Below, piece by piece: positions 2,032 through 5,850 of a stretch of 64,000 bases of DNA. Position 1 is the first letter of the stretch. Every line of letters begins with the position of its first letter. Origin of the DNA: an uncultured candidate division Zixibacteria bacterium (GTDB taxonomy: Bacteria > Zixibacteria > MSB-5A5 > RBG-16-43-9); contig OY970208.1 in the NCBI GenBank assembly GCA_963713865.1, positions 2,432,001-2,496,000 of the forward strand. The letters run 5' to 3'. The position numbers and the translations under genes were made by a program. The notes under the pieces were generated by a model. The model saw only the letters and a list, made by a program, of their open reading frames with translations, was not told where the DNA came from and made no database searches.

Positions 2032-4257
2032 ATGGGTTTTAGTAAATTCTCCGGAATTTTTGGAAAGCTGATCCGCCTCAGGCGGACCGCTGCGAGTATA
2101 CTCTTAATATTGATTATCTTTTCCCCTATTAAATCTTTAGTTGGTGCGGGAATTGGATTTCCCGCACCTGATAACATTCGGAAATTCCAATTCCCGAATG
2201 AACCGGATTCTGTACCGGCTTTTTTGTCCGCCATCTCCGACCAGGACGGGAAAGTCCCTGTTTACTGGTTCAAACCCGGAGCAGATCCACAGGAACAAAT
2301 TTTGGATGACGGGACCAAAGCGCTTCAGTTTTATCTTTCAGATCAGTGGTATGAAAACTGTGCCGCAGAAAAATTTATCTCTCCTTCTTTACCCTTTCTC
2401 CTGTTGAAATCAAAGATATTCATCAGTTATCAGGGCAAACCTGGAGATACTTTATATGACCCCACAGATTCATTTTTCATAACTATAAACAAAAATAACA
2501 AGGGAAAACCAGGGTCTGCACTTTCAGAACCAGTTTATGCAAAAGCAGTAGGTAACGATACATCCGTAGGTGAATGGGTGCAAATAGCGCATAATCTTTT
2601 GATTACCGAAGAGGATACCTTCTGGGTAGTTTTCCGCTGGCTAAAAGATACGCCAACCTCCCCTTTAATCGGATCAGACAATTCCACAAATCTTTGTAGG
2701 TCTTATAAGGGCTGGAAAAAAGATGGGTACTGGCAGTGGAACGAGTGGAATTACAATCTGATGATAAGATGTTTAACCTTGACCAACGATACACCGTCTT
2801 CTCTTATACCAGAAGGATATAATTTATATAGAGCAGACACCTCGAACTTTCAGACCTCTTCTGATATTTTTCCGAAACATTTCCCGGCTGACAGTTTTTA
2901 TTATCTGGATACAGATGTAATTAATGGAAAAAGCTATTACTATAAACTAACCGCACTTTATTCCGGGCAGGAATCAAATAGCTCAAACCAAACTCAAGCC
3001 ACACCTCAAACACCAGCTTCACTCCAGGTAGATCTCGATTCGCTGGAGATTTCTTTGCTCTCAGGAGAAAAGAAAGAAGAGTATCTTCATTTGACTAATA
3101 CCGGTGGTATTCCTCTGGACTTCCAGATAAAACTTGAGCTTTCTCTGGATGATTCAACCAATGGAGCTGATCTTTACGGCTATACCTGGACTGATAATTT
3201 TACCCAAAAAAGTTTAAGATATGAATGGGTAGATACAACTAATCGAGGAACCCAGATTAATAATTCAAGTGATCATGATAAAGTATATGGACCAATTATT
3301 TTGAACTTTCCTTTCCCCTTTTATGGAAATCTCTATGATACTCTCTGGATTTCGACCACTGGTGTTTTGAGTTTTTATCCCTGGGATCTAAGATTTCCCA
3401 ATTACCCTTTACCTTATGATCAGGGATATTTCAGGTTAATATCACCTTTCTGGAGCAATTTGGTTTTAACCGATTCAAGTAGAATTTACTTTTTCCAATC
3501 TTCTGACTCAATCGTTGTTTCCTTCATAGATATAAAACACTTTAAATCCGAAGGTTTATACACCTTTCAGGTCATCCTGACTGAAGAAGGCTCAATCGAT
3601 TTTCAATATAAAATATCAAGCCAGCTCTATGATTCAGCCACAGTCGGGATACAAAATGAAGATGGAACCCTGGCTTTATTAATATCTTACAACCAGGATT
3701 ATCCGGAAGATAGTTTGAGGGTCAGGATAGAGCCTCCTTATCTATCCTTTTCTCCAGTCAAGGGGAAAATTAATCCTGCAGAAACTCAACCTCTAAAACT
3801 CCTCTTCGATAGTCACTTTTTATCTTCCGGTTTATATGAAGGAGTTTTAAAATTTTATGCACAGGACAAAAATCACGCTCTAAATCCATTATCCATACCA
3901 GTAACTCTGAAAATCGATACCACCACTTCAGTTCCGCAGGAAATCGAACAAACCCCCTATATTTTCGAGCTTAACCAGAATTACCCAAACCCGTTTAACC
4001 CCACCACCACCATTCCGTTCCGAGCAGGTAGCAAGAAGCTTGTAGCTCGTAGCCCCATCCATACAACCCTGATTATCTATAATATTTTGGGACAGAAGGT
4101 GAAAACTCTGATGGATGAGGATAAATTACCGGGGAATTATCAGGTTATCTGGGATGGGAAAGATCAAAGAGGAAATGAGGTTTCATCCGGGATATATTTC
4201 TATCAGTTAAAAGCCGGAAATTATAAAGAAACGAAAAAGATGAGTTTGTTAAGATAG
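2032..4257 (+). CDS. Secreted protein with FN3-like domain and C-terminal FlgD-Ig/T9SS-type sorting domain
   Basis: Hydrophobic N-terminus; YNLYR...YYYKLTA FN3 motif; LNQNYPNPFNPTTTI...WDGKDQRGNEVSSGIYFYQL tail. Confidence 0.75.
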   Translation: MGFSKFSGIFGKLIRLRRTAASILLILIIFSPIKSLVGAGIGFPAPDNIRKFQFPNEPDSVPAFLSAISDQDGKVPVYWFKPGADPQEQILDDGTKALQFYLSDQWYENCAAEKFISPSLPFLLLKSKIFISYQGKPGDTLYDPTDSFFITINKNNKGKPGSALSEPVYAKAVGNDTSVGEWVQIAHNLLITEEDTFWVVFRWLKDTPTSPLIGSDNSTNLCRSYKGWKKDGYWQWNEWNYNLMIRCLTLTNDTPSSLIPEGYNLYRADTSNFQTSSDIFPKHFPADSFYYLDTDVINGKSYYYKLTALYSGQESNSSNQTQATPQTPASLQVDLDSLEISLLSGEKKEEYLHLTNTGGIPLDFQIKLELSLDDSTNGADLYGYTWTDNFTQKSLRYEWVDTTNRGTQINNSSDHDKVYGPIILNFPFPFYGNLYDTLWISTTGVLSFYPWDLRFPNYPLPYDQGYFRLISPFWSNLVLTDSSRIYFFQSSDSIVVSFIDIKHFKSEGLYTFQVILTEEGSIDFQYKISSQLYDSATVGIQNEDGTLALLISYNQDYPEDSLRVRIEPPYLSFSPVKGKINPAETQPLKLLFDSHFLSSGLYEGVLKFYAQDKNHALNPLSIPVTLKIDTTTSVPQEIEQTPYIFELNQNYPNPFNPTTTIPFRAGSKKLVARSPIHTTLIIYNILGQKVKTLMDEDKLPGNYQVIWDGKDQRGNEVSSGIYFYQLKAGNYKETKKMSLLR

Positions 4258-4530
4258 ATTATGGAGTGCATCAGTTTACTGACGCATCTTCGAGCAAATA
4301 AAACTCACCCTTGCTCTTTCCTTAGAAAAGAAAGGGAATTAGTTGTAGGGACAGAATCCGCCTCAGGCGGATTCTGTCCAATACTTCCTCTGCTGACCGT
4401 GGGTGGCACCCTCAAACTTGTTTGGGGGTGACTTATAAAATCTTAAGTTTATTAACTCCATAATTACCTTAAATGAAGCGAACCTGAAAGGTTCGCACTT
4501 GTATATTGAATATTATGTTTATATTTTACA

Positions 4531-4713
4531 GGTGAATAAGGGATATACCCTTCACCCAATGGTGGAAGGGAACCTTGCCGACAGATCGTGTCGCACTTGG
4601 GCTAAAAGCTCGTTCGTAGCTTGGTCGTCGGCAAGGTCCCTTGTGCCTCTGCAAGCTCGAACAGTCGAATGGTTAAAAAGACCGCATAGCAAGTATGGGC
4701 TACCAGAGGCAAG
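4531..4713 (+). ncRNA. Predicted IS110 bridge RNA (5' hairpin, target-binding loop, donor-binding loop)
   Basis: Stem 4566-4582/4627-4642 encloses GTCGCACT (4590-4597) and GTTCGTAG (4612-4619); stem TGCCTCTG/CAGAGGCA encloses ACAGTCG (4661-4667) and CAAG (4690-4693); exact ends unknown. Confidence 0.8.
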
Positions 4714-4744
4714 TTAATTAAATTATACTAAAGGAGGAGTAGTT

Positions 4745-5670
4745 ATGCAACAGATAGTTTGCGGGATTGACGTTAGTTCAGAGGAGCTTGAAGCTTGCAT
4801 TCTTTTGGCAGATGATACTGCTAATCCACACCGCCGGACCTTCAGCAACACCAGGAAAGGTATTAAGAAGTTCATATCTTGGTTAAGGGGTAACAAAGTA
4901 GAGTTGGTAGTTATGGAGGCATCAGGAGGGTATGAGCGGGTTTGTAGGAGGATGTTAAGAGAGTTAGGGATTCAGGCTCATGTAGTTAATCCTGCACGGG
5001 TAAGGCATTTTGCCAGGGGGATAGGAAAACTGGCGAAGACGGACAAGATTGATGCCCGGGTTATAGCCAGATTTGGACAGGTGGTGAAGTTAGAGGAGTT
5101 AGGGGAGATAAGTGAGATGGAGTTGGAGATTCAGGAGCTTATCAAAAGGCGGCAGGAGTTGCAGGAAATGGTAGTGGCAGAGAAAAACAGGCTTCGTATA
5201 GCAGAGAGGGAAAAGGCAAAAAGCCTTAAAAGGATAATCAAGGTATTGGAGAAGGAGCTTGAGCTGATGGATGAGAGGATAAAGGAATTAGCTCAAAAAG
5301 ATGATCAGATTATGCGGAAGGTTGGATTTTTAAGAAGGGAAAAAGGGATGGGATTTATCACCGCTATAAGTTTACTTTCTTGTTTACCTGAGTTGGGGAG
5401 AGTAGATAGGAAAAAGATATCTGCGTTGGCGGGGGTGTCACCTTTCAACCGAGAGAGTGGCAAGTGGAAAGGTAAAAGCTTCATAAGTGGAGGACGTGGA
5501 CTCATAAGAAGATCCTGTATATGCCTGTCTTGGTAGCAATAAGATTTAACCAGAAGCTAAAAGAGTTTTATCAGAGGTTATTAGCTTCAGGAAAGGCAAA
5601 AAAAGTAGCCGTGGTTGCGGTGATGCGCAAATTACTAATTATCTGTAATGCCATTTTAAAAAATGCTTGA
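4745..5670 (+). pseudogene. IS110 DEDD recombinase/transposase, frameshifted near 5507-5512
   Basis: GIDVS, VMEASGGY, KTDKIDA and RESGK motifs; the C-terminus ILYMPVLVAIRFN...AVMRKLLIICNAILKNA continues in the -1 frame to TGA at 5670. Confidence 0.9.
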
Positions 5671-5748
5671 TTTTCAAGACAGTCGCTACGAGAAAAACAT
5701 AAAATAAACAAAAAAATGGAGGTCTGAAGACCTCCGCTACACAAAAAT

Positions 5749-5777
5749 GCAGGGGCGGGTTTTAAACCCGCCCCTGC
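5749..5777. repeat. REP-like palindrome (GGGGCGGGTTT-AAACCCGCCCC family), possible terminator
   Basis: Near-identical copies at 21091-21119 and 23143-23171. Confidence 0.8.
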
Positions 5778-5850
5778 AAAAACAATAAAAATATAAACTC
5801 ACTCACCTGCTTATAAATTTCCTCCAGTAACTTCTTCAAGACTTACTTAG

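Follow-up and report, generated by a model that had tools for sequence, protein, structure and literature searches.

An IS110-family insertion sequence of an uncultured Zixibacteria bacterium, its probable IS621-type bridge RNA and the host hairpin repeat matched by its guides

Can the non-coding left end of an insertion sequence be read as an RNA whose guides name both the site that the element enters and the element's own joined ends? The question is raised by a locus of an uncultured bacterium of the candidate division Zixibacteria, lying in a window of 64,000 nucleotides (nt), i.e. the whole stretch of DNA that was analysed (GenBank assembly GCA_963713865.1, contig OY970208.1, forward-strand positions 2,432,001 to 2,496,000); positions below are those of the window unless a genome contig is named. 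An earlier note on this DNA had proposed that the left end at 4500-4744 encodes an IS110 bridge RNA with guides for both target and donor around a CT core, in the layout of IS621, the Escherichia coli element whose bridge RNA and recombinase were described by Durrant et al. (2024; PMC11208160) and Hiraizumi et al. (2024; PMC11208158). That proposal agrees with the protein family, the layout of the RNA, the repeats of the host and the covariation of guides with flanks, and positions 4500-5687 are accordingly read as an IS110-family copy, the left end of which very probably encodes an IS621-type bridge RNA.

The element itself is clearly delimited. Within the host genome, which is a single 2.72-Mb contig, there are three full copies and one 92-nt fragment; the second copy (L002) lies at C1:196580-197789 and the third (L003) at G000:C1:1081785-1082997, the natural intact copy spanning 1081805-1082992; all three are identical but for one A. 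Alignment of the copies with their flanks set the ends at ...CT/TGTATATT on the left and ...ACAGTCG-CT/AC... on the right, the slash following the core dinucleotide. The junctions of the window copy read GGTTCGCA-CT/TGTAT (CT at 4498-4499) and ACAGTCG-CT/ACGAGA (CT at 5686-5687), and CT is present at both junctions in 3/3 genome copies. A precise empty site was found in a 9461-nt contig of metagenome run X3, which joins 4497 to 5686 and skips 1188 bases, with two bases ambiguous; the boundaries of the insertion sequence are therefore fixed at 4500-5687, or 1188 bp counting one CT. In the same run the depth of the element contig was 156, against 49.7 for the flank, and the element is polymorphic in nature and present in several copies. 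The termini are not inverted repeats of one another, as none of 25 inverted pairs connects the two. The non-coding left end occupies 4500-4744, and the transposase gene starts at 4745.

The product of this gene belongs to the family of RNA-guided IS110 transposases. The window transposase matched Pfam PF01548 (DEDD_Tnp_IS110, the N-terminal RuvC-like DEDD domain; residues 6-151, E 6.3e-27), PF02371 (Transposase_20, the C-terminal Tnp domain; E 1.3e-7) and NCBIfam NF033542, 'IS110 family RNA-guided transposase' (166.5 bits, cut-off 140), while the third genome copy, with an open frame of 308 amino acids and no stops, reached 206.8 bits over model positions 1-341 of 343. The intact relative L079 (98% identical) aligned with the IS621 transposase (8wt6_A) over residues 6-307 against 10-314 (E 1.4e-37) and with the ISCro4 transposase (E 1.3e-35). 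The motifs GID, MEASG, KTDxxDAR and ESG line up between L079 and IS621, and the D, E, D and D residues, named as in PMC11208158, are matched to the IS621 motifs; catalysis by this protein is predicted.

In the window copy all of these motifs, including the ESG serine, precede a frameshift, the break falling 14 codons past the serine motif and cutting the C-terminal Tnp domain, which the third genome copy has in full. The earlier note had regarded the frameshift as something to be repaired before recombination could be tried; it is indeed present in the window copy, but it is not a property of the element as such, for L003 carries an intact 308-amino-acid gene, and with this natural copy in the same genome no repair is needed; L079 is likewise intact. 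The missing A is common to the window and L002 copies: either the deletion is genuine, and a defective element has travelled in trans, or two of the copies were misassembled. According to the first explanation, which is given slightly less than an even chance, the A was lost once and the window copy is dead and non-autonomous, the defective element having been copied to a second site by the recombinase of the third copy, which acted in trans on the intact RNA and ends of the defective one. This accounts for the same 1-nt deletion in two copies that are otherwise identical to the intact one over 1188 bp, and trans action of IS110 recombinases is reported for ISPpu10 (10.64898/2026.03.19.712850) and regarded as possible for IS621 (PMC13626964); however, a mistake of assembly or base calling within a short run of purines beside GATC would give the same pattern. 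According to the second explanation, judged neither more nor less probable than the first, the frameshift was introduced by such a mistake in the assembly or its consensus, and each of the three copies is in truth intact and autonomous. An extra A stands behind 5508 in every covering contig of three other metagenome runs (X1 1/1, X3 1/1, X5 1/1), which counts against a trans-mobilised dead copy and for an error, as do the intact frames of L079 and the third copy and the extra assumption required for an inactivating mutation shared by two copies. Against an error, it would have to strike two copies yet spare the third in identical sequence, and the run is merely three bases long. The window copy keeps all parts of the RNA and both ends and, if the missing A is real, would depend on an intact copy elsewhere in the genome.

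The left end folds far better than expected from its composition. The minimum energy of 4500-4744 was -83.3 kcal/mol, against a mean of -61.3 for 200 dinucleotide shuffles, none of which folded as well (z -4.56), and two long stem-loops were recovered, each enclosing an internal loop that holds the strings named in the earlier note. The consensus fold of the window with the relatives L080, L082 and L083 contains 43 pairs, and in their alignment the stems are near-invariant whereas the letters of the loops vary. Among relatives, 17/21 pairs of the outer stem of the target-binding stem-loop and 11/13 pairs of helices 3 and 4, in the donor-binding stem-loop, have changes on both sides. In a wider alignment of 34 distinct rows, which was fitted to a covariance model of the RNA (R1) and so favours the structure, 89% of cells pair, against 33-49% with slid partners, and 35/43 pairs have compensatory changes on both sides, values that 0/500 shuffles reached. 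Model R1, built from the window, L080, L082 and L083, found the same RNA on the + strand, ending at the gene start, in most of 154 loci that had been fetched by protein (identity 26-46% in reference genomes and 34-98% in metagenomes). No match to R1 at E 1e-5 or better was found in 40 genomes of relatives, nor was left-end DNA found in 12, negatives that do not establish absence, as these genomes are mostly drafts in which repeats often go unassembled.

The guides in the first internal loop can be read by the IS621 rule, under which the left guide carries the top-strand sequence of left target and core, and the right guide the complement of core and right target (PMC11208160). Read in this way, they specify GTCGCA-CT-ACGAAC, and the target predicted to recombine is GGGTCGCACTACGAAC; the wild-type target of IS621 is ATCAGGCCTAC (PMC11208160). 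The occupied sites were rebuilt as TTCGCA-CT-ACGAGA for the window, in agreement with the site put forward in the earlier note, and as GTCGCA-CT-ACATTA and GTCACA-CT-ACGATG for the others; the left flanks of the three copies are TTCGCACT, GTCGCACT and GTCACACT.

These sites belong to a repeat. At 3/3 insertion sites a hairpin, GCGACCC-TGAA-GGGTCGC, provides the left target as its 3' arm, and in this hairpin the window has the compensatory changes C>A and G>T. The 17-mer of the hairpin arm has 71 matches at three or fewer mismatches in the host genome, compared with 7 for a reversed control, and among 68 free copies of the repeat the next bases are AC in 49, ACGA in 33 and ACGAA in 27. The 14-mer derived from the guides occurs three times exactly in the host genome, 30 times at up to one mismatch and 63 times at up to two, where 30 shuffled 14-mers gave means of 0, 0.63 and 10.1. 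The repeat is present in 8/8 genomes of the same family, with 23-57 copies each at up to one mismatch, and in 0/12 genomes of three other families of the order. The target predicted from the guides is thus the consensus of a hairpin repeat resembling repetitive extragenic palindromic (REP) sequences, at its 3' foot and tail, and specific to the family of the host. As this repeat is enriched in the host and restricted to its family, the target loop appears to be written for it.

Further GC-rich hairpin repeats lie in the window at 4350-4380, 5718-5735 and 5748-5778; the one at 4350-4379 is followed by CTAC... in metagenome contigs, and many hairpins of differing sequence in the host genome end in CTAC. 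Apparently the host genome has several REP-like families that share a tail and often stand in tandem with the target hairpin. Classical REP sequences are linked to Y1 transposases (REP-associated tyrosine transposases, RAYT), the link involving a GTAG tail. Eight matches to Y1_Tnp (PF01797, the IS200/IS605 and REP-associated transposase family) were found in the genome, e.g. at G000:C1 801515-801856 and 1449650-1449883, but only one of them is located 1.5 kb or less from any target hairpin.

The second internal loop was compared with the ends of the element as they would be joined in a circle, ACAGTCG-CT-TGTAT. The match claimed for it in the earlier note holds for the left donor guide, which repeats the last seven nucleotides before the right CT, and for the right donor guide, which fits CT-TGTAT; the core is left unpaired by the left donor guide. 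The right donor guide follows the discontiguous pattern of IS621 with one spare base, the left end being TGTAT, whereas in L083 it is contiguous (AUACAAG). In IS621, the pairs are CAAG with CTTG and AU with AT, with flipped-out bases and a G facing T (PMC11208158), and the right half CT-TGTAT of the IS621 donor that the earlier note had quoted follows from these pairings. Across relatives the donor guides are conserved as ACAGUCG(C), in nearly all, and CAAGG, in line with PMC11208160, where donors are stated to be better conserved than targets. The putative handshake base of the donor loop is U in the window and L079, where the left target ends in A, and G in L080, L082 and L083, where it ends in C.

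One test of guide function is whether guides change together with insertion sites, and in relatives of 61-76% protein identity the left target guide does change with the flank. L080 and L081 (73-76% protein identity) have the left guide UCGCCCCU and the flank ...ACGCCCCT; in L082 (61%) the flank is ...CCGCCCCT and in L083 ...ACGCCCCT, with a covarying left guide in each, and the fragment in the host genome (L004) combines a TGCCCCT guide with the flank ATGCCCCT. On the right, the guide GUUUGUAG of L080 and L081 goes with the flanks CTACAG and CTACAA, while GUUCGUAG of the window goes with CTACGA. In 24/70 distinct loci of distant relatives, the 300 nt upstream contained the 7-mer that aligns with the left guide's end, against 214/4672 in a cross-locus control, and this 7-mer was nearly always followed there by TGTAAC or TGTAT. 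With a tolerant register, exact matches of at least 8 nt were found in 29/70 loci (controls 5.4%) and of at least 9 nt in 17/70 (1.5%). Guides therefore covary with flanks in close and distant relatives alike, where a lack of covariation would, by the earlier note, have refuted its proposal, and this covariation, together with the enrichment of the 14-mer in the host genome, places the guide matches beyond chance.

That the structured left end is a mere leader controlling translation or stability of the transposase mRNA, with matches to flanks and ends arising as by-products of insertion into a repeat, is very improbable: the RNA does lie directly upstream of the Shine-Dalgarno sequence and no terminator was found between RNA and gene, but the loops vary with the insertion site while the stems hold fixed, a copy of one strand of the left target plus a complement of the right target around the same CT is not expected of a leader, and the same layout guides recombination experimentally in IS621 (PMC11208160). 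With no terminator in between, a joint transcript of RNA and gene is likely.

A number of observations nevertheless weigh against the bridge RNA reading. Agreement with the 14-nt target is poorer at the three occupied sites (3, 4 and 3 mismatches) than at 63 free ones (at most 2), so that the extended right guide may not govern site choice; with only three sites to judge from, either about 11 bp count, as in IS621 (left target, CT and AC), or insertions at good matches disappear more easily. U4589, with which the 9-nt left guide begins, mismatches the repeat consensus G. The left donor guide of the window is followed by AA in place of CU and leaves the CT core unpaired, where most relatives have C (ACAGUCGC) and the left donor guide of IS621 pairs one core base (PMC11208158). 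In L080 and L081 a hairpin is inserted in the position of the left donor guide, yet the right end is still ACAGTCG-CT. Exact 7-mer matches were lacking in 46/70 distant loci, a count that includes contigs beginning inside the element and is affected by tolerated mismatches and an inexact alignment register. Rfam 15, searched over 4300-5800 at E up to 10, gave no match on the + strand within 4501-4744. All 20 listed runs holding the stretch are metagenome runs, and there is no RNA run among the 24 runs listed for it; no circle junction was seen in assembled contigs, which cannot show rare forms. Set against the agreement of layout and guide rules with PMC11208160 and PMC11208158, and with every string named in the earlier note found in its place, these points leave an IS621-type bridge RNA the strongly favoured reading. 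The features are collected in Table 1.

Table 1. Features of the IS110-family element and its insertion site, in window positions.
Feature	Position	Strand	Basis or remark
Target-site hairpin (REP-like repeat), left flank, GCGAACCT-GAA-AGGTTCGC	4478..4496	+	8-pair stem, loop of 3; 3' arm = left target
Left CT core dinucleotide	4498..4499	+	Junction alignment; the 2 bases at the X3 joint fit either side
IS110-family insertion sequence	4500..5687	+	3 genome copies, X3 empty site
TATATT, -10 half of putative junction promoter	4502..4507	+	Kept in L080, L081, L082
5' stem-loop of RNA	4531..4556	+	Minimum-energy and centroid fold
Target-binding stem-loop	4566..4642	+	21-pair outer stem, symmetric 9x9 internal loop, 6-pair inner stem; RNAalifold consensus
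Left target guide UGUCGCACU	4589..4597	+	5' side of loop 1; last 8 nt = top strand of left target + CT
Left guide string GTCGCACT of the earlier note	4590-4597	+	Found in place
Right target guide GUUCGUAG (DNA GTTCGTAG)	4612..4619	+	3' side of loop 1; reverse complement of CT-ACGAAC, extended, 8 nt
Putative handshake guide, target loop	4620..4621	+	By position, PMC11208158 rule; C4620 can pair with G7 of donor ACAGTCG
Donor-binding stem-loop	4645..4710	+	Built like the target-binding one; fold and RNAalifold consensus
Left donor guide ACAGUCG	4661..4667	+	= last 7 nt of element before CT (5679-5685)
Right donor guide AU-A-GCAAG (AUAGCAAG)	4686..4693	+	Discontiguous pairing with CT-TGTAT (core + left end); CAAG at 4690-4693
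Putative handshake guide, donor loop	4694..4695	+	PMC11208158 rule; U4694 can pair with A7 of left target
Shine-Dalgarno AGGAGG	4732-4737	+	Upstream of transposase gene
Transposase (bridge recombinase) gene, first 255 in-frame codons	4745..5536	+	Pfam, NCBIfam
Frameshift site	5508..5511	+	GAAG in window, GAAAG in intact copies; one A fewer in run 5509-5510
Out-of-frame C-terminal 49 codons of transposase	5521..5670	+	Tail identical to that of intact 308-amino-acid protein
TTGATT, -35 half of putative junction promoter	5667..5672	+	Overlaps stop codon; L082 has TTGACT in same place
Right end: left donor ACAGTCG + right CT core	5679..5687	+	Right end same in L079, L080, L081, L082
Right target ACGAGA, tail of REP-like repeat	5688..5693	+	Flank alignment, X3 contig

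How such an RNA might come to be made is suggested by the two ends of the element. A promoter scan found no promoter-like site upstream of the RNA in the integrated state, and IS621 has a junction promoter split over its right and left ends (PMC11208158; PMC13626964). Judged from sequence alone, a comparable pair of half-sites appears to be present here: in the circle TTGATT and TATATT would be separated by a spacer of 17 nt, and these motifs are kept in L080, L081 and L082. By analogy with IS621, rare excision would give a circle whose junction, ACAGTCG-CT-TGTAT, would form a sigma-70 promoter (TTGATT, 17 nt, TATATT), and this promoter would drive both the RNA and the recombinase. The donor loop would pair with the right and left ends of the element after their joining in the circle, and a recombinase tetramer with one RNA would then bring the circle junction and a copy of the repeat together, strand exchange taking place at CT.

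The likeness to IS621 extends over most parts of the system. Both recombinases combine a RuvC-like DEDD domain and a coiled coil with a Tnp domain that carries the ESG serine, and their alignment is full-length. Compared with the published description of the IS621 RNA, which has a 5' stem-loop (PMC11208158), the RNA of the window likewise lies in the left end and has a 5' hairpin followed by two stem-loops with internal loops. Both elements have a 9-nt left target guide side, a CT core, the left end TGTAT and a right donor guide that pairs discontiguously with CT-TGTAT, and in both the target, which ends in CT-AC, is formed by the foot of a repetitive hairpin; left target guide and left donor guide are spaced 72 nt apart here and 73 nt apart in IS621 (A50 to A123). 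The differences are a right target guide of 8 nt (CT + 6) rather than 4 nt, one flipped-out base in the right donor guide rather than two, a left donor guide that does not pair with the core, and a longer 5' region. Unlike IS621, moreover, the present element is known from its sequence and is aimed at another repeat (GTCGCA-CT-ACGAAC) in another host lineage.

Two further groups of elements bear on the comparison. IS1111-type elements, which Siddiquee et al. are said to have described in 2024, reportedly carry a seekRNA downstream of the gene and have subterminal inverted repeats; by that account they share with the window element the protein family and an RNA reading target and ends, and differ from it in that the RNA lies upstream of the gene here and no terminal inverted repeat was found. 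ISPpu10 of Pseudomonas putida inserts into REP sequences, its left target being the 3' arm of a stem-loop with a conserved 5' sequence, and the stem-loop adds specificity, a requirement that was demonstrated by mutation (10.64898/2026.03.19.712850). The site geometry of the window element is similar, with a hairpin at 4478-4496 that is kept with compensatory change among the three sites; unlike in ISPpu10, a need for the hairpin is here only inferred.

The closest relatives form a clade of proteins known only from metagenomes, with about 13 clusters at 66% identity or more among 6289 proteins at E 1e-20 or better. Its members (L079-L083 and P0001-P0013) resemble the window element in having proteins 66-99% identical and RNAs scoring 148-166 bits to R1, and L079-L083 have the same ends, ACAGTCG-CT and TGTAT, and the same junction promoter motifs. 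They differ from it in that L080-L083 are aimed at another palindrome, GGGGCGTATTG/CAATACGCCCC-T, with correspondingly different left target guides, and in that L080 and L081 have the left donor guide replaced by a hairpin and L083 is degraded. The inserted hairpin of L080 and L081 reads CCGCC-TAA-GGCGG, at about 1075-1100, and these two loci have identical left flanks and different right flanks. The transposase frame of L083 is broken by many stops, and CTTGTAT is present in duplicate at its left junction, yet its RNA is the best match to R1 (166 bits).

Outside the element, a protein of 741 amino acids is encoded upstream (2032-4257), the end of which resembles a C-terminal sorting domain of the type IX secretion system. 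A search of the Atlas with the window's PEP carboxykinase returned proteins of mixed taxa.

The 92-nt fragment in the host genome may record how elements of this kind decay. The relic, at G000:C1:596641-596730 (L004:1503-1600), is the left end of a related element (77% identical) and breaks off precisely at the end of its own left guide (...CAGATCGTT-TGCCCCT; ...CGTT-TGCCCCT), where the right target ACAATATT joins without a gap; its upstream flank is ...GGGA-TGCCCCT. The orthologous site in G001, a genome of the same genus, is empty, with a single TGCCCCT and then ACAATATT. From the relic and this empty site it follows that the scar consists of left target-CT, then the left end up to guide DNA that again reads left target-CT, then right target, the whole segment that runs from the guide-coding CT to the right-end CT having been lost. 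Together with the TG behind it, the DNA coding for the left guide imitates the left junction (left target + CT + TG), and excision as published (PMC13626964) employs the left guide at the left junction and the left donor guide at the right one. It is conceivable, though on this single case rather doubtful, that the element's own RNA and recombinase use the guide-coding DNA as a false left junction, and that excision from there to the true right junction leaves a crippled circle and a scar of about 92 nt; such false excision at an internal guide site would give exactly the product seen in the relic. No mention of excision at guide DNA was found in the passages of the IS110 literature that were searched, and the relic ending at guide-coding DNA is the one point that might be new, again from one case. 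If general, this would be a built-in decay route of bridge-RNA elements, and a predictable by-product when guides are reprogrammed for genome editing.

Descriptions of bridge RNAs since 2024 cover thousands of IS110 elements; the present one belongs as an ordinary case to the kind described in that year, though its documentation is unusually good. It opens no new question, as RNA-guided IS110 recombination, REP targeting, junction promoters and covariation of guides with flanks are already in print, and the supplement of PMC11208160, which gives predicted guides for many orthologues, may already include this clade. What it adds is a natural bridge recombinase with complete guides that can be read by hand, a 14-bp target and an extended right target guide, of which a natural intact copy is available without repair. 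All states are documented side by side: intact and frameshifted copies, dozens of unoccupied targets, a truncated relic and, from a sister population, the empty site. The elements of the clade are each tuned to a hairpin repeat of their own host lineage, which fits the recently proposed recognition of sequence plus structure.

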